5,768 bases of DNA. Source: a virus. The notes beneath the pieces are model-generated. The model was given only the letters and a program-made list of their open reading frames with translations, was not told the origin of the DNA and did not search any database. The stretch lies in the IMG/VR virus record IMGVR_UViG_3300045988_016372, positions 1 through 5,768 of that record; one strand, given 5' to 3'. Every line of letters starts with the position of its first letter. Within the stretch, counting starts at the first letter, position 1. Below, piece by piece: positions 1-5,768 of the stretch. The position numbers and the translations under genes are program-made.

Positions 1-1526
1 ATGAGGAAGGTAAAGCAGTAACAATAGAAGACAGTACACACCTTACATACAGCAGCAGTAGTATAGTAGCATATCTCGGAAAAAGAAGCGGGGCGGCAAT
101 ATATTCAGACAAAATAATAATAAATAATGCAGTACCATGGTTAGCATACTTGGATATATTTAAAAATTACTATGCAAACAAACAAGAAGACAACTACTAC
201 TGGATAGGCAAGTTCGAAAATGTATATAAAGTAGAAGATACCAACATAGTCTATGCGACTATAACAGGAGAACCATCAATAACATCAGGATATTTCCTAA
301 TAAAAAATGCAAATATAGACATAGTAGACTATACAACTGTAAAATACACAAGAAACGGTATCACAAAAGAATATGAACCAACATATTTAAAAGCACACTT
401 TACTATTAGTCAATCAGGTCCCGATCTAAAATACACAAGAAAAAATGACGGAAGTGTAATATATGGAAAACTAAGCGGATTCGCAATAGATAAAAGAAAA
501 AATTCAATAGACAATGCAAAATTAACGGAATTAGATACACTACGAGAAAAGATACTTGCGGCGGGCAAAACACAATTTGTTATTAACAAAACAACAAATA
601 AATACTTCGCAAACGTACTAGGACAAAACAACAACAAGTGGAATCTCAAAGAAGCAGGTTGCGGGTTAATCTTGAAAACATACCAAAGTGATATTTTTAA
701 CAACTGGGTTAAATCAGAATGGATAAGTGGAGAAAACGGAATCAGTGCAATAACGGCAATCAGCACAGCGGGGGATAAATTTACAATAGACCAGCTAAAC
801 CTGTCGAAAAAAGTGTACGACATGTTAAACAGAATTGCAGTAAGCGGAGGCACATATCAAGACTGGGTAGAAACAGTGTATACATCTGAATGGAACATGC
901 ACACGGAAACACCTATGTACGAGGGTGGACTATCAAGTGAAATTGAATTCCAAGAGGTAGTGAGTAACTCAGCAACAAACGATGAACCGCTAGGAACATT
1001 AGCAGGTAGAGGTATCAATACCATGAAAAAGGGCGGAAAGTTGCACATCAAGGTGACAGAACCTAGTTACATCATGGGAATAGTAAGTATAACACCTCGA
1101 GTAGATTATTGTCAAGGGAATGATTTCGACATTTACTTCACGACACTAAATGATCTGCACAAACCAGCACTAGATGGTATAGGTTATCAGGACTTATTAA
1201 CGTGTAAAGTAGCAGGGTGGACACCATATACAGCCGCATACGGGAAAACGGTGGCATGGATAGACTACATGACAAATTTTAATAAAACATACGGAACATT
1301 CGCAGAAAATGGAAATGAGGCATTCATGGTACTTAACAGAATCTTCGAGCCAAAAAATGGAGAATTCAAACAAAATGAAATAGATAACACAAGTTATATA
1401 GACCCAAGTAAATACAACTACATATTCGCAGAAACATCAGCAGAATCACAGAATTTTTGGGTACAAATAGGATTCGGAATCGAGGCTAGAAGAGTTATGT
1501 CGGCAAAACAAATACCAAATTTATAA
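1..1526 (+). CDS. VP1: Major capsid protein (Microviridae F/VP1 family), 3' portion. The 5' portion is at 5340-5768 and joins here across the circular junction.
   Basis: Frame 0 (first full codon at 3) is open from the window edge to the TAA at 1524-1526 and has no start of its own. The same frame is open from ATG 5340 to the window end, and 5692-5768 duplicates 1-77, so the two pieces are one 1878-nt gene (625 aa). The N-terminal piece carries the capsid signatures LPGDTF and IDIFTAPFRLYN (compare phiX174 F ...VDIFTFYVPHRH...). The ORF track entry 150..1526 only reflects an internal TTG. Confidence 0.92.
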   Translation, partial: EEGKAVTIEDSTHLTYSSSSIVAYLGKRSGAAIYSDKIIINNAVPWLAYLDIFKNYYANKQEDNYYWIGKFENVYKVEDTNIVYATITGEPSITSGYFLIKNANIDIVDYTTVKYTRNGITKEYEPTYLKAHFTISQSGPDLKYTRKNDGSVIYGKLSGFAIDKRKNSIDNAKLTELDTLREKILAAGKTQFVINKTTNKYFANVLGQNNNKWNLKEAGCGLILKTYQSDIFNNWVKSEWISGENGISAITAISTAGDKFTIDQLNLSKKVYDMLNRIAVSGGTYQDWVETVYTSEWNMHTETPMYEGGLSSEIEFQEVVSNSATNDEPLGTLAGRGINTMKKGGKLHIKVTEPSYIMGIVSITPRVDYCQGNDFDIYFTTLNDLHKPALDGIGYQDLLTCKVAGWTPYTAAYGKTVAWIDYMTNFNKTYGTFAENGNEAFMVLNRIFEPKNGEFKQNEIDNTSYIDPSKYNYIFAETSAESQNFWVQIGFGIEARRVMSAKQIPNL

Positions 1527-1536
1527 CCAATACGAT

Positions 1537-1893
1537 ATGAAAAGAAAAAAATATATACCAACATTCATGGGATCGGTAGAATCATTCGAGGGTGAAGCCA
1601 TCGAAAAAAAAGTATCGAGACTAATTGAAAATAATGAACCGATCACGGACGGAGCACCGATAATTTTTACAGAAAAAAAGGACGGAGTATTACCTCAATA
1701 CGACATCAGGACGGACAAATGGGATATAGCCCAATCGGCTATGGACTTAGCCAACGCAAGTAAAATAGCGAAGAGCAGAGGTTTGAAAAAACCTGAAGAA
1801 CCAAAACAGAGTACAGGACAACAGCAGAGTACAGGACAACAGCAGAGTACAGGACAACAGCAGAATACAGGACAACAGCAGAGTACAGAATAG
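1537..1893 (+). CDS. 118-aa protein with a basic N-terminus (MKRKKY) and a Q/S/T/G-rich repetitive C-terminal tail. Possible internal scaffolding (VP3-like) protein, function unconfirmed.
   Basis: ATG at 1537 lies 10 nt after the VP1 stop, on the same strand as all other genes, and the ORF ends with TAG at 1891-1893. The central segment PIIFTEKKDGVLPQYDIRTDKWDIAQSAMD resembles, from memory only, the conserved core of gokushovirus scaffold proteins. No search was run. Confidence 0.75.
   Translation: MKRKKYIPTFMGSVESFEGEAIEKKVSRLIENNEPITDGAPIIFTEKKDGVLPQYDIRTDKWDIAQSAMDLANASKIAKSRGLKKPEEPKQSTGQQQSTGQQQSTGQQQNTGQQQSTE
1807..1890 (+). repeat. In-frame 18-bp tandem repeat cagagtacaggacaacag x4.7, encoding (QSTGQQ)n at the C-terminus of the 118-aa protein.
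   Basis: Copies at 1807-1824, 1825-1842 and 1843-1860 are identical. The copy at 1861-1878 has one G>A change (S>N). A partial copy spans 1879-1890 before the stop. Confidence 0.97.
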
Positions 1894-1913
1894 CGGCAAA
1901 GCACGTATGAGTA

Positions 1914-1937
1914 TAAGGGACTTTTCGGAGTCCCTTA
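1914..1937 (+). promoter_or_regulatory. Perfect 9-bp stem-loop (taagggact / tttcgg / agtccctta), 20 nt downstream of the 118-aa gene stop. No U-tract follows.
   Basis: The inverted repeat was verified base by base. It is followed by cttctaacg rather than a T-run, so it is not a classic intrinsic terminator. Possible partial terminator, RNA-stability element or processing site setting the 118-aa/VP2 expression ratio. Confidence 0.45.
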
Positions 1938-1949
1938 CTTCTAACGAAT

Positions 1950-1965
1950 CACACGGGTACGTGTG
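1950..1965 (+). promoter_or_regulatory. Second short stem-loop (cacacg / ggta / cgtgtg) in the 118-aa-to-VP2 intergenic region.
   Basis: 6-bp perfect inverted repeat with a 4-nt loop, centred on a GTAC palindrome. It sits 50 nt upstream of the VP2 start in an A-rich leader. Confidence 0.35.
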
Positions 1966-2016
1966 TACTCTTATATATGAACTAAGTTATCAACGCTTTT
2001 AAAAAAAGCTACGAAA

Positions 2017-3063
2017 ATGGGAATCGGTAAAGAAATAGGAAGTGCAGCCCTAGGAGGGCTGACAGGTGGAGTTGGAGGTCTAGTATCAGGAGCAATCGGA
2101 GGGCTAGGATCACTAATGGGCATCGGCAGGCGAAAAGAGAAAAAAGCCCGAGAAGCCGAAGAAAGGGAGCATCAAAGACAGCTGGAATACATGGGGCTAC
2201 AAGCTCAGTATAACAAGGATCAAGCGAAATACTCCACAGAACTCAGCAAGGAAATGTGGGACTATACCAACTATGAAAATCAAAAAAAACATCTGGAAGC
2301 GGCAGGACTGAATCCAGCACTACTGTACGGTAGCGGTGGCGGTGGCGGTGGAAGTGCAGCAGGCGGCGGAAGTGCAGCAGGCGTAGGGCTGCCATCATCA
2401 ACAGGAGTAGGAATGGGCATCCAGTGGGAACAAATGGAAGCCCAAAAAGAGCTGGCTAAGGCAGAGGCAGCAAAGACTAACGCAGAGGCAGCGAAGCTGA
2501 TAACGACAGACACCGAGAACGTGAAGTCAGAAACAGAAAAAAACAAACAAGAAATCAAAGAATCCAAGAAGAGAATAGAACACCTAACCAGTCAGATTCA
2601 TAAGACTAATGAAGAAAGTAAGGGGCTGGAATTTAACAACTATCTGAACGACCTAAGAAAAGGCATCAAGCTGCATGGCGAGGTAAACGGAAAGACAGTA
2701 TGGACTAAGGGATTTGATGAAATTTTCAAGGAAAATGAGCTACAAAGAATGTTAGCAGATTACGGAATCTCACAAAAAGAATATCAAGAGGCAAAAAATG
2801 ACAAGGAGATAGCTATGAAGCTATCTGATGCTCTCGACGAGATTGCAAATGGAAAGATAGCAGTATTCGGCAAGATGGTAGAAGAAGCCAAACAGGCTAA
2901 GAACGAAACAGCCATTCAAAAATGGCAATTCGAACAGGACAAGGCACTCAGCGACCTGATCAATGAGCTAGGAGGTGAAGGAAAATACGGAAAATTACTA
3001 ACATCAATAATAAACGCAATATTCAACAAATGGAGCGGTTACGGAGGAAAGAAAGGAAAATAA
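2017..3063 (+). CDS. VP2: Minor capsid / DNA-pilot protein (Microviridae VP2 / H-like).
   Basis: 348-aa ORF with the A-rich leader aaaaaaagctacgaaaATG. The N-terminus is glycine-zipper-like and hydrophobic (GGLTGGVGGLVSGAIGGLGSLMG). The conserved VP2 block WDYTNYENQKKHLEAAGLNPALLYG is present, followed by a poly-Gly linker and a roughly 150-aa charged heptad-like (coiled-coil) region, consistent with a pilot protein forming a DNA-translocation tube. Confidence 0.85.
   Translation: MGIGKEIGSAALGGLTGGVGGLVSGAIGGLGSLMGIGRRKEKKAREAEEREHQRQLEYMGLQAQYNKDQAKYSTELSKEMWDYTNYENQKKHLEAAGLNPALLYGSGGGGGGSAAGGGSAAGVGLPSSTGVGMGIQWEQMEAQKELAKAEAAKTNAEAAKLITTDTENVKSETEKNKQEIKESKKRIEHLTSQIHKTNEESKGLEFNNYLNDLRKGIKLHGEVNGKTVWTKGFDEIFKENELQRMLADYGISQKEYQEAKNDKEIAMKLSDALDEIANGKIAVFGKMVEEAKQAKNETAIQKWQFEQDKALSDLINELGGEGKYGKLLTSIINAIFNKWSGYGGKKGK
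2335..2385 (+). repeat. Composite microsatellite inside VP2: (ggtggc)2-ggtgga followed by an imperfect 18-bp tandem duplication ggaagtgcagcaggcg(gc/ta), encoding GSGGGGGGSAAGGGSAAGVG.
   Basis: Direct inspection: copies at 2350-2367 and 2368-2385 are 16/18 identical. Hexamer repeats precede them at 2335-2352. Confidence 0.9.
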
Positions 3064-3065
3064 TT

Positions 3066-3998
3066 ATGTGTTTATACACCAAATACATTACAAACAAAAA
3101 GTACCAGCCAAACAAGAAAAACAACTTTAGAGCGCCTATCTGCAAAGATAGGCGTTTATTATTAGTACCAGCGAAATGCGGAAGATGTATCGAATGTAGA
3201 AAGGCGAGAAAAAGGGAATGGGTAATCAGACTGAACGAGGAGATTCGGAATAATCCTGAAAAGGCTACCTTCTGGACGCTGACAATAAGTAACGAAGACT
3301 ACGAAAAATTGAAGAATGACAGCAAAAAAAAAGACAGAGATAGCATATGTAAATTAGCAGTTAAGAGAATGCTCGAGCGAATACGAAAAAAAACAAAAAA
3401 GTCTGTCAGACACTGGTTTATCACAGAACTAGGAGAGAACACAGGAAGAATACACCTACATGGTATATGCTGGGGGGATCCTGATCTAATAAAGGAAAAC
3501 TGGAAATACGGATTTGTATTTCAAGGCAATATGTGCAATGAAAAGACAGTGAATTACGTAGTGAAATACATGCTCAAAGAGAATCCAATAGAGCGAAACT
3601 ATATAGGAATTGTACTATGCAGCGCAGGGATAGGCAAAGGATATGAGCAAAGCTACAACAGCAAAAGGAATGCATATAGGGAAAACAATACCAATGAATA
3701 TTACAAATTACCTAATGGAATGGAACTACCATTACCTGAATACTATCGGAAAAAAATATACAATGAAGAGGAACGGGAGAAACTATGGATTGAGAAGCAG
3801 GAGAGGGGCTACAGATACATATGTGGCGAAAAAGTATCAATAGATGATGAAGAAGAATACAACAGTATTCTTAATTACTACCGTGAAAGAGCCAAAGAAT
3901 TATATAACGAAAATTATGATAATTGGGAGAAAGAGCGGCACAAAAGGCAACTTCAGAAACTCAAAGAATATCAGCAAGAACACAAAAGAGGCGGTTAA
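3066..3998 (+). CDS. VP4: Rolling-circle replication initiation protein (Microviridae VP4 / gpA-like HUH endonuclease).
   Basis: ATG 3066 lies 2 nt after the VP2 stop and is preceded by the purine-rich ggaggaaagaaaggaaaataatt. An in-frame ATG at 3030 would overlap VP2 by 34 nt; this is the less likely start. The N-terminal Cys cluster is CKDRRLLLVPAKCGRCIEC...REW. RCR motif I is FWTLTI (about 3270), motif II is IHLHGICWG (HLH at 3454-3462) and motif III is NYVVKYMLK with a YxxxY catalytic tyrosine pair (3555-3578). TAA stop at 3996-3998. Confidence 0.92.
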   Translation: MCLYTKYITNKKYQPNKKNNFRAPICKDRRLLLVPAKCGRCIECRKARKREWVIRLNEEIRNNPEKATFWTLTISNEDYEKLKNDSKKKDRDSICKLAVKRMLERIRKKTKKSVRHWFITELGENTGRIHLHGICWGDPDLIKENWKYGFVFQGNMCNEKTVNYVVKYMLKENPIERNYIGIVLCSAGIGKGYEQSYNSKRNAYRENNTNEYYKLPNGMELPLPEYYRKKIYNEEEREKLWIEKQERGYRYICGEKVSIDDEEEYNSILNYYRERAKELYNENYDNWEKERHKRQLQKLKEYQQEHKRGG

Positions 3999-4012
3999 TA
4001 ACCGCTTTTTTT
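3991..4012 (+). terminator. Rho-independent terminator at the end of VP4: stem gcggtt/aaccgc (loop aat) followed by a T7 run.
   Basis: gcggttaataaccgc ttttttt. The VP4 stop codon (3996-3998) lies in the stem/loop. A GC stem plus 7 consecutive T is canonical. Confidence 0.7.
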
Positions 4013-4055
4013 GTGTTGATAAGTATACAAAATCGGTTAATAAACATGTTAATAA
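3994..4055 (+). repeat. Three copies of GTTAATAA(C) at 3994-4001 (in the terminator loop), 4036-4043 and 4048-4055.
   Basis: Exact octamer matches. Two copies are 12 bp apart, immediately downstream of the rep terminator. Confidence 0.8.
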
Positions 4056-4212
4056 CTTGTGAATAAAAAAATAAATTTTTAACACTTTATTAAGATTTGA
4101 TTTATATATAGAAAAAAGATTTATATTTCAAAATTTAATAATAGAAAGTTATAAAAAGTTATGAACAGAGTTATGAACAAGATAAATAGCTATGTTTCAG
4201 GCTATTAACATG
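4045..4212. repeat. 10-bp inverted repeat pair, catgttaata (4045-4054) and tattaacatg (4203-4212), bracketing a roughly 150-nt, roughly 19%-GC segment.
   Basis: Exact reverse complement, verified by hand. A chance 10-mer inverted repeat within 160 bp is improbable. It could form a large hairpin in the packaged single strand. Confidence 0.8.
4101..4115 (+). repeat. TTTATATATAGAAAA, copy 1 of an AT-rich direct repeat (copy 2 at 4258-4270).
   Basis: Compare ttgatttatatatagaaaaaag (4096-4117) with ctgtttatatagaaaatta (4255-4273). Confidence 0.75.
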
Positions 4213-4223
4213 GTTATGAACAG
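4146..4223 (+). repeat. Iteron-like direct repeats (A)GTTATGAACA(G/A): a partial copy aagttat at 4146-4152, a tandem pair at 4157-4168 and 4169-4180, and a third copy at 4213-4223.
   Basis: Exact 11-mer gttatgaacag at 4158-4168 and 4213-4223, and gttatgaacaa at 4170-4180. The tandem pair is phased at 12 bp. The third copy directly abuts the right arm of the 10-bp inverted repeat. Confidence 0.85.
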
Positions 4224-4257
4224 TTTCAACAGGATATTATTATCATATATATTTCTG

Positions 4258-4270
4258 TTTATATAGAAAA
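4258..4270 (+). repeat. TTTATATAGAAAA, copy 2 of the AT-rich direct repeat.
   Basis: See copy 1. It lies 11 nt upstream of a perfect TATAAT hexamer. Confidence 0.75.
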
Positions 4271-4280
4271 TTATAAATAT

Positions 4281-4286
4281 TATAAT
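4281..4286 (+). promoter_or_regulatory. Perfect TATAAT hexamer 5-10 nt upstream of the GC-rich island. Candidate -10 element if the host uses sigma70-type promoters.
   Basis: The tataat string is present. The best -35 at 17-bp spacing (tttata, 4258-4263) is weak (3/6). TATAAT arises by chance in AT-rich DNA, so this is low confidence. Confidence 0.25.
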
Positions 4287-4290
4287 AATG

Positions 4291-4560
4291 GCGTTACCCC
4301 TAAAGGGGTCGGGCTTTCCGCTGTGATCCCTAACGCAGCAGCGCAAAGGACAGTACGGTTTCCATGCAACATCCATGGATCAGGAAGTAAGAGCCAGATA
4401 ATAATTTTTACGCGGGCATGGTGTCAATATCACAGGGAAGCTCGCACTCTGTGCGCCGGGATCAGGCTACATGTCACACGGCAGCACTAAGTTATCTAAG
4501 GTGCTAACGCTATCGGGGCTACGCGCCCCTATACCCCTCGTACGCAACAAAGTTGCGATT
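4291..4560 (+). other. GC-rich (about 53% GC), hairpin-dense non-coding island. Candidate complementary-strand (ssDNA to dsDNA) origin / primosome-primase entry site, or a novel structured ncRNA.
   Basis: A sharp composition step from about 19% GC (4081-4290) to about 53% GC, by my own count. No ORF of 60 aa or more on either strand. Verified local stem-loops: 4296-4309 (acccc-taaa-ggggt), 4361-4379 (tccatg-7nt-catgga), 4443-4455 (cgcac-tct-gtgcg), 4483-4505 (agcac-13nt-gtgct), 4515-4529 (ggggc-tacgc-gcccc) and 4543-4557 (cgcaac-aaa-gttgcg). Internal repeated motifs: GGATCAGG x2 (4377-4384, 4459-4466) with its complement tgatcc at 4324-4329, and CTAACGC x2 (4330-4336, 4504-4510). Confidence 0.5.
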
Positions 4561-4564
4561 ATAT

Positions 4565-4882
4565 ATGCCTACGGCAGTTTTTTTAACAAAATATATTTGT
4601 TACTTTCAGAAAAAATACAGTAACTTTAGGGCAAACAAAATTCAAGATATAAAAAGAATATACGAATTCAGCTTTATTCCAAAAGGTCTAGCTTACATGT
4701 TAAAAGACAATACAGAACGATATTGGTATCTATACATACGAAATAATGAAGAAGGTATAGTTACAGAAACAAAAGAAGGATTCTACATATACGATTATAC
4801 AAAATTAAATAATATATATGCAGGAAATAATATGCTAACACTGGCGAAAAAAATAAGAGAATTATATAATTTATTCAAATAA
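4565..4882 (+). CDS. Hypothetical Tyr-rich small protein (105 aa from ATG 4565; alternatively 61 aa from ATG 4697).
   Basis: ORF on the coding strand with A-rich codon usage like the other genes and a TAA stop at 4880-4882. Its 5' 130 nt overlap a T7 run and a promoter-like motif, so the shorter form MLKDNTERYWYLYIRNNEEGIVTETKEGFYIYDYTKLNNIYAGNNMLTLAKKIRELYNLFK may be the real product. I recognise no homology. Confidence 0.4.
   Translation: MPTAVFLTKYICYFQKKYSNFRANKIQDIKRIYEFSFIPKGLAYMLKDNTERYWYLYIRNNEEGIVTETKEGFYIYDYTKLNNIYAGNNMLTLAKKIRELYNLFK
4566..4584 (+). terminator. Weak terminator-like element: 4-bp stem tgcc/ggca followed by a T7 run (4578-4584), just downstream of the GC island.
   Basis: tgcctacggcag ttttttt. 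The stem is short, so this is low confidence. It would delimit an island transcript of about 290 nt if TATAAT 4281-4286 is a promoter. Confidence 0.25.
4592..4599 (+). promoter_or_regulatory. TATATTTG. Matches the Bacteroidetes sigmaABfr -7 promoter consensus TAnnTTTG.
   Basis: Exact consensus match. No clean TTTG -33 element was found upstream (gttttttt). It lies inside the long version of ORF 4565-4882, which would push that gene's start to ATG 4697. Confidence 0.3.
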
Positions 4883-4915
4883 TGTTCCACGTGAAAAAAC
4901 CTATTAATTAATGAT

Positions 4916-5128
4916 ATGAAAATAGAAGAAAAGTATAAAAAATTAATTCGTGAAATCACAATTGCAGTATTGTCAGCCATCCTGACATGGTTGGGAGTAA
5001 GTTGTACCAACATGCTATCTATTCAGAGAAATGTGAAAGATAGCAGCATAAGTACAGAAAACAAGACAGAAGGAAAGGTAAGTGCAGATAGCACAAGTAT
5101 TAACTTATTTAACAAAGAAAAAAAATGA
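4916..5128 (+). CDS. 70-aa small protein with a signal-peptide / lipoprotein-like N-terminus (membrane-anchored or secreted). Candidate lysis or superinfection-exclusion factor.
   Basis: MKIEEKYKKLIRE, then the hydrophobic stretch ITIAVLSAILTWLGVS followed by Cys (a lipobox-like LGVSC), then a polar S/T/K-rich tail. Its TGA stop (5126-5128) overlaps the ATG of the next ORF (ATGA), which argues for real translation. Confidence 0.6.
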   Translation: MKIEEKYKKLIREITIAVLSAILTWLGVSCTNMLSIQRNVKDSSISTENKTEGKVSADSTSINLFNKEKK

Positions 5129-5343
5129 ATGTAGAAGAATTATTCAAGATCAGACCTACTAACGAAGAACAAAATGATTTCATAATCACCGTAGGACAAC
5201 ACTTAGCAACAGAACAACATTTCAATACTAGAGAAGAAGCAGAAAAATACACAAATACACCGCAATGGGACATGATTCTAGCTATGGTAGCTGAAATGTT
5301 CCAGATTCAAACAGAAGTTGAATACAAAAAAGATAAGGAATGA
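5125..5343 (+). CDS. 72-aa acidic (Glu-rich) small protein immediately upstream of VP1, translationally coupled to it.
   Basis: ATG 5125 overlaps the upstream stop, and its own TGA (5341-5343) overlaps the VP1 ATG 5340. The leader is A-rich (gaaaaaaaATG). It is not basic, so it is not phiX174 J-like. Function unknown. Confidence 0.6.
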   Translation: MNVEELFKIRPTNEEQNDFIITVGQHLATEQHFNTREEAEKYTNTPQWDMILAMVAEMFQIQTEVEYKKDKE

Positions 5344-5768
5344 GCATATCAAAATCAATAGGAAAGAGCACCCTAGGCGGTGGTAAATCCATACAGGTTG
5401 ACCTGAAAACCTACAATAGAAGTACACACAATCTATCATACGCATGGCGAAGTAGTATGGGTGTAGGTACACTAGTACCATGCATGAAATTAGTAGGATT
5501 ACCAGGAGATACGTTTGACATTGACATAGATACTAAAGTACTGACACATCCAACAGTAGGACCACTATTCGGTTCATACAAATTACAAATTGACATATTT
5601 ACGGCTCCATTCAGACTATACAACGCAATGTTACACAACAACGCACTAAATGTAGGTCTAGATATGAGTAAAGTCAAATTACCTAAAGTTGATGAGGAAG
5701 GTAAAGCAGTAACAATAGAAGACAGTACACACCTTACATACAGCAGCAGTAGTATAGTAGCATATCTC
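5340..5768 (+). CDS. VP1: Major capsid protein VP1, 5' portion (continues at 1-1526 through the circular junction).
   Basis: ATG 5340 overlaps the TGA (5341-5343) of the upstream 72-aa ORF (ATGA), with the A-rich leader aaaaaagataaggaATG. Translation reads MSISKSIGKSTLGGGKSIQVDLKTYNRSTHNLSYAWRSSMGVGTLVPCMKLVGLPGDTFDIDIDTKVL...SYKLQIDIFTAPFRLYNAML, the typical Microviridae jelly-roll capsid N-terminus. The frame stays open to the window end. Confidence 0.9.
   Translation, partial: MSISKSIGKSTLGGGKSIQVDLKTYNRSTHNLSYAWRSSMGVGTLVPCMKLVGLPGDTFDIDIDTKVLTHPTVGPLFGSYKLQIDIFTAPFRLYNAMLHNNALNVGLDMSKVKLPKVDEEGKAVTIEDSTHLTYSSSSIVAYL
5692..5768. repeat. Terminal redundancy: exact 77-nt duplicate of positions 1-77 (circular-genome assembly overlap). 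Unit genome = 5691 nt.
   Basis: Direct string identity of 5692-5768 with 1-77. 5691 is divisible by 3, so the VP1 frame is preserved across the junction. Confidence 0.97.

Follow-up and report, generated by a model that had tools for sequence, protein, structure and literature searches.

Where replication of the genome begins in microviruses outside the phiX174 group is the question raised by a repeat-rich stretch of non-coding DNA in the IMG/VR virus record IMGVR_UViG_3300045988_016372. We analysed positions 1 to 5,768 of this record (hereafter the window, 5,768 nucleotides (nt) in length), which form a complete, circular microvirus genome (terminal overlap of 77 nt) with all genes on the + strand. 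The element of interest, which we call the module, begins at the stop codon (3998) of the gene for VP4, the replication initiation protein (Rep), and thus lies in cis beside the gene for an initiator of the HUH class. Our tentative reading, held at somewhat short of an even chance, is that 3991-4290 is a self-contained cis-acting cassette that serves as the double-strand (viral-strand) origin of rolling-circle replication in this Bacteroidetes-infecting clade, with both Rep binding and the nick putative. For the unmapped origin of replication in non-phiX microviruses, a group that dominates single-stranded DNA (ssDNA) phage diversity in guts and oceans, the module is so far the strongest candidate. 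In the searchable literature we found no description of a microvirus iteron module or of a non-phiX replication origin; the closest earlier reports concern dif motifs (PMC3091885, PMC7062461) and hairpins suggested to act in the synthesis of the minus strand (PMC9865509).

All repeats of the module reduce to a single 9-bp motif, GTTATNAAC, with approximately eleven copies when degenerate ones are included. The copies form two arrays of opposite orientation, an inverted array at 3994-4067 and a forward array at 4148-4231. The left array lies on the - strand and reads GTT(A/G)ATAA(C/A) on the + strand; its units are exact copies at 3994-4002 and 4048-4056 and the variants GTTGATAAG (4015-4023), GTTAATAAA (4036-4044) and GTGAATAAA (4059-4067), with spacings of 21, 21, 12 and 11 nt. 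The right array, on the + strand, reads GTTATNAAC(A) and has units at 4148-4156 (GTTATAAAA), 4158-4166, 4170-4178, 4201-4209 (GCTATTAAC), 4213-4221 and 4223-4231 (GTTTCAACA), spaced by 10, 12, 31, 12 and 10 nt. Because all spacings (10-12, 21 and 31 nt) are near whole helical turns, the sites would lie on one face of the helix. Between the arrays is a spacer (4062-4141) that is the AT-richest 80 nt and the guanine-plus-cytosine (GC) minimum of the genome, with 8.75% GC vs 37% overall, and that is a candidate DNA-unwinding element; its sequence is moderately conserved and its length differs between subclades. On the right side, the module contains a conserved non-repeat core on the + strand (4223-4252, GTTTCAACAGGATATTATTATCATATATAT), immediately behind the last complete iteron, and a right-border motif on the same strand (4278-4289, TATTATAATAAT), for which the family consensus is (A/G)ATTATAAT(A/G)(A)(T)(A)G.

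The initial annotation had described this region as three families of direct repeats plus a 10-bp inverted repeat, and had read them as putative Rep-binding iterons at an origin or, alternatively, as operator sites. Each listed string was located where it had been placed: GTTAATAA at 3994, 4036 and 4048, GTTATGAACA at 4158, 4170 and 4213, TTTATATA(TA)GAAAA at 4101 and 4258, the inverted repeat CATGTTAATA at 4045 and TATTAACATG at 4203, and the palindrome ATAGCTAT at 4186. The region 3994-4290 is AT-rich as claimed (12-26% GC in 100-nt segments), and the first copy of GTTAATAAC sits in the loop of a hairpin at 3979-4017. The division into separate families did not hold: because GTTAATAAC is the reverse complement of GTTATTAAC, the families merge into one motif in two orientations, and the inverted repeat at 4045/4203 is a left-array unit facing a right-array unit. 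The two copies of TTTATATA..GAAAA and the palindrome ATAGCTAT are not conserved in relatives and, judging from these comparisons, are best treated as chance occurrences in AT-rich DNA rather than functional elements. The proposal of Rep-binding iterons at an origin is therefore supported in part; the phased repeats are conserved, whereas the families had been over-split and two of the elements appear to be noise.

On either strand of the whole window GTTATNAAC occurs seven times vs 0.30 expected, and none of 200 shuffles reached seven; within 3994-4221 there are five copies vs 0.025 expected from local composition, a number reached in 0 of 2000 simulations. An unbiased "largest repeat family" statistic calculated for this sequence alone was borderline (58 of 1000 simulations reached five copies), so it is the comparative evidence that carries the case.

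A VP4-based search of viral contigs returned 80 loci, and the register of the motif was determined in 60 non-redundant relatives (Rep 43-97% identical) with positions given relative to an anchor at 4213; the relatives come from human, pig and mink gut samples. Part of the comparative loci were gathered by DNA patterns over 4205-4232, so the conservation of those columns is inflated; this affects the 110-nt core identities, the 60-genome register and the core consensus, while an 18-genome alignment and 11 genomes found through VP4 alone are unbiased subsets. The same layout is present 3' of VP4 in every locus with at least 50% Rep identity and enough DNA after VP4, and also in the distant relative L003. 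We did not find it in relatives at 44-49% Rep identity, which are mostly environmental, and the full core is confined to microviruses whose VP4 is at least 49% identical. The forward sites at -55 (4158), -43 (4170) and 0 (4213) are present in 60, 59 and 60 of the 60 relatives, and the columns at -55 and -43 lie outside every search pattern. Inverted copies peak at -219, -198, -187, -177, -166, -154 and -143, an 11-nt register. An iteron that recurs across related genomes at non-random spacing, as expected from the initial annotation, is thus clearly present. In 48 near-complete genomes, the 350-nt module holds 280 exact copies of the motif (16.7 per kb) vs 23 copies outside it (0.089 per kb), making the module approximately 190-fold denser.

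Sequence conservation follows the same pattern. In the 18-genome alignment the right half of the module is almost invariant (AAAAGTTATgAACAaAGTTATgAACA.GATAAAT...ATTAACAtaGTTATgAACAgTTTCAACAGgcTATtAT...CATATA), and the 110-nt core is 72-88% identical compared with 56-66% for the VP4 gene at the nucleotide level. Against L003, with its Rep at 44-46% identity, blastn aligns no DNA of the window except the region of the core at 4148-4231. When the 11 genomes found through VP4 alone were aligned over their whole length, 4204-4263 ranked first in conservation among all 60-nt segments (1.67 bits) and 4014-4073 third (1.65 bits; mean 1.19, standard deviation 0.26), level with the best-conserved stretch of the capsid gene. 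A search for relatives of L003 in which iterons and Rep might co-vary returned none, and a search of 72,556 plasmids with the module gave no match. De novo discovery of repeats gave noisy results in distant clades, since there the coding DNA resumes almost immediately behind VP4.

Different repeats occupy the equivalent position in other Rep lineages, GGTAAGAATATAT in three copies in L266 and TGTTAAA in two to three copies in environmental clades, and the hosts of these lineages probably differ too. In L036, L044 and similar loci, the repeats lie approximately 60-120 nt after VP4 and are either two to three copies of TGTTAAA or a palindrome, TTAACAGG..CCTGTTAA, with a conserved TATAAATTATAG behind it.

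The module is also portable. Positions 1265-1600 of L242 are 97-98% identical to 3991-4322 of the window, yet the Reps of the two genomes are only 49% identical. Identity with L242 starts at approximately 3991; the cassette is bounded on the left by the VP4 terminator hairpin and ends on the right within a GC-rich block. Recombination exchanges the cassette whole between Rep lineages, and its borders are sharp. The hairpin at the VP4 stop codon (3979-4017, + strand) has 19-nt arms that are 89% complementary and fold as an 18-bp stem, carries GTTAATAAC at its tip and is followed by a run of seven T residues (T7); a terminator scan gave a terminator-like match to it on the - strand. It looks like an intrinsic terminator that forms the left border of the exchangeable cassette, and it is missing from L018, L025, L017 and L003, so that only some modules include it.

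To the right of the border motif at 4278-4289 the lineages differ completely, with either a direct run to the promoter or all or part of a 270-nt GC-rich block. In the subclade of the window this mosaic block (4290-4565, + strand, 46-57% GC) lies outside the conserved module and separates it from the promoter. Among relatives the block is whole, partial, partly duplicated (L182) or replaced (L006), and it is absent from L018, L019, L026 and L003. Its folding z score is approximately -2 on both strands, and G.U pairs favour a structure in the + strand, which the block may form. As a structured RNA it was rejected, given just two compensatory pairs (found in hairpins GGGGCTACGCGCCCC and CGCAACAAAGTTGCG) and an unconvincing consensus fold. 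Its long unpaired segments, for example TCTAAGGTGCTAACGCTATCGGG, are invariant. Rfam covariance models gave no match for the whole window at E values up to 1 or for 4270-4610 at E values up to 10.

A second GC-rich, hairpin-rich block of approximately 150 nt was observed between the VP4 stop codon and the left array in L019 (3015-3180), and a left-side block is also present in L016, L020, L022, L023 and L024, which belong to another subclade. Since GC blocks are found on the left or on the right depending on the lineage, GC cassettes flank the module on either side. A 31-nt GC hairpin at 4290-4320 of the window (GGCGTTACCCCTAAAGGGGTCGGGCTTTCCG) is 100% identical in L093 (4567-4597), where it lies upstream of VP4, which suggests that this hairpin is a small mobile unit.

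VP4 matches PF23343 and phrog_942 ("replication initiation protein") and is the only conserved DNA-handling protein in these genomes. Residues 1-60 (3066-3245), which include five cysteines (C2, C26, C38, C41 and C44), are its most conserved part; 29 of the 60 positions are at least 95% conserved, above the catalytic HUH/Tyr region across the clade, and these residues may form a zinc-binding DNA-recognition domain. We predict VP4 to be the iteron-binding protein from the indirect evidence that it is the sole conserved protein of this kind, that its Cys-rich N-terminus is conserved and that repeats at this place differ in other Rep lineages. The architecture of the module, its conservation and its portability are shown by the data; which protein binds, how the DNA melts and where the nick falls we infer, as follows. 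On the supercoiled replicative form, several VP4 molecules would occupy the phased GTTATNAAC sites, likely through the Cys-rich N-terminal 60 residues. Binding on one helix face in two opposed arrays would bend or wrap the DNA, so that either the AT-rich spacer or the core beside it melts. VP4 would then nick the + strand with its HUH/Tyr centre, within the module or at its edge, at 4227-4237 or 4278-4289. The 3' end would be extended by host helicase and polymerase, and the regenerated site would be cut in the next round and the strand closed, as by protein A of phiX174. Priming of the complementary strand would probably be provided by other structured DNA, either the GC blocks or the hairpins at 1894-2016.

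Two places are candidates for the nick. The first is CAACAGG/ATAT at 4227-4237, which resembles CAACTTG/ATAT of phiX174 and is a weak lead only. It lies in the core (consensus gTTTCAACAGgcTATtAT.atcATAta), which falls within the most conserved segment at 4204-4263, and 4227-4245 agrees with the phiX174 origin, verified against NC_001422, at 15 of its first 19 bases, including G/ATAT. The second, inferred candidate is the border motif ATTATAAT at 4278-4289, the place at which foreign cassettes have been inserted; a related sequence, TATAAATTATAG, is conserved in environmental clades with approximately 45% Rep identity.

Several observations weigh against this origin reading. The motif may be bound by a host protein and not by VP4. 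An AT-rich spacer flanked by eleven sites in opposed arrays is seen more typically in theta-type iteron origins or centromere-like sites than in known rolling-circle origins, where two to four repeats lie next to a nick hairpin. One cassette serves beside Reps that are only 49% identical, which fits clade-wide specificity and Rep-independence equally well. The phiX174-like sequence is one of three equally good 15/19 matches in the window (at 573, 684 and 4227, none in VP4; local p approximately 0.014-0.03), and the base after the putative cut (after GG) is C, not A, in most relatives. The inflated conservation of the pattern-collected columns described above belongs here as well. Finally, unrelated tailed-phage contigs contain a similar array, with four copies of GTTAATAA and approximately ten of TTATTAACA. 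The terminases of these tailed phages (L180 and L136) are like those of Blautia and Clostridium phages, i.e. from a different host phylum. Their arrays (in L180 at approximately 5750-6330) are intergenic, with TTATTAACA at 11-nt spacing, and share both the motif family and the opposed layout of the module.

A broader proposal is that a large clade of gut Bacteroidetes microviruses keeps its origin in a portable non-coding cassette of approximately 300 bp outside rep, built like a plasmid or chromosomal iteron origin with opposed phased arrays on either side of an unwinding element, read by an HUH nickase through a zinc-binding N-terminus and swapped between Rep lineages. We regard this proposal as possible, with the odds leaning against it.

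The alternative that survives best, although we consider it unlikely, is transcriptional control, in which the arrays bind a regulator (VP4 or a host factor) that tunes either the promoter of the operon running from the small open reading frames (ORFs) to VP1 or a weak promoter in the core. In most relatives the module lies approximately 100 nt upstream of a canonical TTTG-N~20-TAnnTTTG promoter; the core itself holds a near-consensus -33/-7 pair, TTTC-N21-TATATTTC, at 4224-4227 and 4249-4256, and sigma-70-type scans match 4217-4286. The lineage-specific repeats of L266 overlap the promoter itself, with the third GGTAAGAATATAT copy (in 5060-5120) covering part of the TATATTTG promoter box, and geminivirus Rep proteins are known to autoregulate via their iterons. 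However, 3994-4290 contains no exact + strand TAnnTTTG; the only one in the non-coding DNA of the window is the -7 box TATATTTG at 4592-4599 (+ strand), which belongs to the Bacteroidetes-type promoter of the small-ORF-to-VP1 operon and lies outside the module. A TAnnTTTG is found inside the module in only 10 of 60 relatives, and the near-consensus -7 box of the core is without its terminal G in the lineages inspected. The canonical promoter is downstream of the module in 53 of 60 relatives (median +117 from the anchor), and the array and the promoter are separated by anything between 100 and 428 nt, with whole GC cassettes inserted between them, which an operator would not tolerate. No regulator gene except VP4 is conserved, the small ORFs differ among close relatives, and eleven sites plus a GC minimum would be excessive for an operator. 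The operator sites offered as an alternative in the initial annotation are thus disfavoured by a promoter at variable distance and by the lack of any conserved regulator other than Rep. Given the weak promoter-like pair at 4224-4256, the module may nevertheless have a regulatory side-role.

Quite improbable, in our estimate, is that the arrays are sites for a host DNA-binding protein (DnaA-like, nucleoid-associated or a partition-type adaptor) that the phage recruits, independent of VP4 specificity, to replicate or to maintain its circular form in carrier cells. This would account for a cassette that sits beside Reps 49-97% identical and for similar arrays in unrelated tailed phages, and phased arrays with an AT-rich spacer are reminiscent of parC-type centromeres and of the theta origins of chromosomes and plasmids. 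The motif also differs by one base from the relaxed DnaA box TTATNCACA; an exact box, TTATTCACA, is formed on the - strand by the fifth left-array unit (4058-4066), and the left array of L003 contains two exact copies of GGTGAATAA (TTATTCACC on the other strand) and a third, GGTGAATTG. However, at position 7, where motif and DnaA box differ, 327 of 328 copies have A, and TTATNCACA is present in only 8 of 59 modules, each with a single exact box. A DnaA-box cluster was rejected because of this invariant A. In addition, the tailed phages with similar arrays have hosts of a different phylum as judged by their terminases, none of the 72,556 plasmids carries the module, and the full core is restricted to one VP4 clade.

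We think it very unlikely that the module is a complementary-strand (minus-strand) origin, in which the opposed arrays would pair into a long imperfect hairpin for host primase or RNA polymerase, comparable to the minus origin of Ff phages or the single-strand origin (sso) of rolling-circle plasmids. The arms at 4031-4059 and 4198-4226 are 79% complementary, 3975-4295 folds as ssDNA with a z score of -4.9, and left-right pairing recurs in the predicted folds of relatives. However, this score comes mostly from the VP4 terminator hairpin; with the hairpin removed the window scores -2.5, and seven relatives score between -0.5 and -1.7. Each copy of the motif keeps to the consensus and does not co-vary with its partner, so it is the sequence, not the pairing, that is under selection. 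A single-strand hairpin as the selected feature was rejected on these folding scores. Better-structured candidates are present elsewhere, namely 1890-2020 (two hairpins, z about -4.7) and the GC blocks.

The window also contains an iteron-like pair, TATATGAAC and GTTATCAAC, within 1894-2016, at 1975 and 1986 and thus 11 nt apart. This pair is retained in the close relatives L006, L007, L214 and L225. We consider 1894-2016 a candidate complementary-strand origin or second Rep contact.

An XerCD-type attachment site, a dif-like attP as in Bacteroidetes proviruses and enterogokushoviruses, is the least probable explanation: a distantly related microvirus prophage in a Rikenellaceae metagenome-assembled genome (L090, 3586-9037; Rep 33% identical) is flanked by a 15-nt direct repeat, AAATTATGTCTGGTT, inside dif-like sites (ACATAA-TATAAA-TTATGT), the phage-side site lying approximately 35 nt after the VP4 stop codon in the same intergenic position, but an 11-6-11 scan of the window with E. 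coli, B. subtilis, consensus and L090-derived queries gave best hits with 7-13 mismatches, in the simulated range, no prophage of the clade was found in 185,579 species genomes, two apparent junctions with bacterial DNA are a chimera (L215, 4689-5217, with an ABC-transporter gene fused mid-gene to VP1) and a join to a VP4 without its N-terminal 60 residues that leaves the module intact and internal (L213), and arrays of approximately eleven sites are unlike Xer sites.

We next compared the proposed origin with replication origins that are already defined. By descent, the closest relative is the origin of phiX174 and the Bullavirinae, a 30-bp site (CAACTTG/ATATTAATAACACTATAGACCAC) cut by protein A, with which the window shares the virus family, the Rep superfamily and rolling-circle replication of an ssDNA circle. 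Like protein A, VP4 is an HUH protein with a two-tyrosine motif, YVVKY. The defining features of the phiX174 origin are absent. In phiX174 a single 30-bp site lies in gene A and there are no iterons, whereas here approximately eleven repeats lie in a non-coding cassette of approximately 300 bp. A phiX174-type origin (CAACTTGATATTAATAACACTATAGACCAC, 30 bp inside rep) was rejected because VP4 contains no 15/19 match. An origin of any kind inside rep was rejected as well; synonymous diversity is high along all of VP4, with no stretch of suppressed synonymous change (the lowest 10-codon value was 0.49 vs a mean of 0.72), which argues against a phiX-style intragenic origin.

By function, the module would come closest to two kinds of origin, the bind-plus-nic type of rolling-circle plasmids and the iteron-plus-stem-loop type of circular Rep-encoding ssDNA (CRESS-DNA) viruses. 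Among the plasmids, pMV158 has a nic site and a bind locus with three 11-bp direct repeats, and pT181 and pC194, the latter with a phiX-like CTTGATA nick, are further examples. As in their double-strand origins, the module lies beside rep and has short, helically phased repeats, which in the plasmids are bound by the initiator apart from the nick. Plasmids also shuffle cassettes of origins and single-strand origins, as this clade does with the module and the GC blocks. In these plasmids two to four repeats share one orientation and the nick falls in the loop of a hairpin, whereas the module has opposed arrays around an AT-rich spacer and no conserved nick hairpin. Geminiviruses and circoviruses among the CRESS-DNA viruses have an HUH Rep, lineage-specific iterons beside rep and origin exchange by recombination, and the module would resemble them in these respects. 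The module differs from them in having many more copies and no conserved stem-loop of the nonanucleotide type, the sole hairpin (3979-4017) being missing in several relatives.

The intergenic region of the Ff phages (M13/f1) is likewise a non-coding region of an ssDNA phage with initiator-binding repeats, an AT-rich enhancer-like stretch and structured DNA nearby. However, its Rep family is unrelated, and the Ff hairpins are selected for structure, while here a sequence motif is selected. Theta-type iteron origins (plasmid Rep iterons and lambda ori) resemble the module in their many phased repeats and adjacent GC-minimum region; theta-type replicons, however, depend on winged-helix Rep or O-type initiators with recruitment of DnaB, whereas the sole initiator encoded here is an HUH nickase. 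The dif-like attP of BMV1-7 and the enterogokushoviruses is also a short cis element in non-coding microvirus DNA, and that of L090 is in the same intergenic position as the module. In BMV genomes the dif-like site is upstream of rep (PMC3091885). Unlike these, the window has no dif-like site, and the gap of only 2 nt between VP2 and VP4 leaves no room for one upstream of rep.

If the reading of the module as an origin is correct, Microviridae other than the Bullavirinae would gain their first defined origin architecture. A bounded, conserved and exchangeable cassette of approximately 300 bp is a concrete fragment for tests of Rep binding, nicking and replication in trans. As an origin it could provide a minimal replicon or packaging substrate for Bacteroidales genetics and a marker for the annotation of microvirus genomes, and it would explain why recombination breakpoints and GC cassettes cluster at the borders of the module. 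If a host protein binds the module instead, it would reveal an unknown host dependency of these phages.

The window is the genome of a gut microvirus. The gene for the capsid protein VP1 (Phage_F) runs from 5340 across the ends to 1526 and is followed by a small ORF (1537-1893), the gene for the pilot protein VP2 (2017-3063) and VP4 (3066-3998), all on the + strand. Approximately 700 nt of non-coding DNA follow VP4, after which three small ORFs on the + strand lead back to VP1. A Bacteroidetes host is indicated by the promoter type, TTTG-N~20-TAnnTTTG, and the GenBank relatives of VP1 are animal-gut microviruses, Parabacteroides phages among them. A tRNA scan of the window found none. In one relative (L213, 12700-14536) the VP4 frame reads through the left iteron array, encoding ...VNNSRKPVDNSAKSVNKPVNKLLIK. 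In the window, the 3' end of the small ORF at 1537-1893 (approximately 1806-1890) is a tandem 18-nt repeat that codes for (STGQQQ)n.

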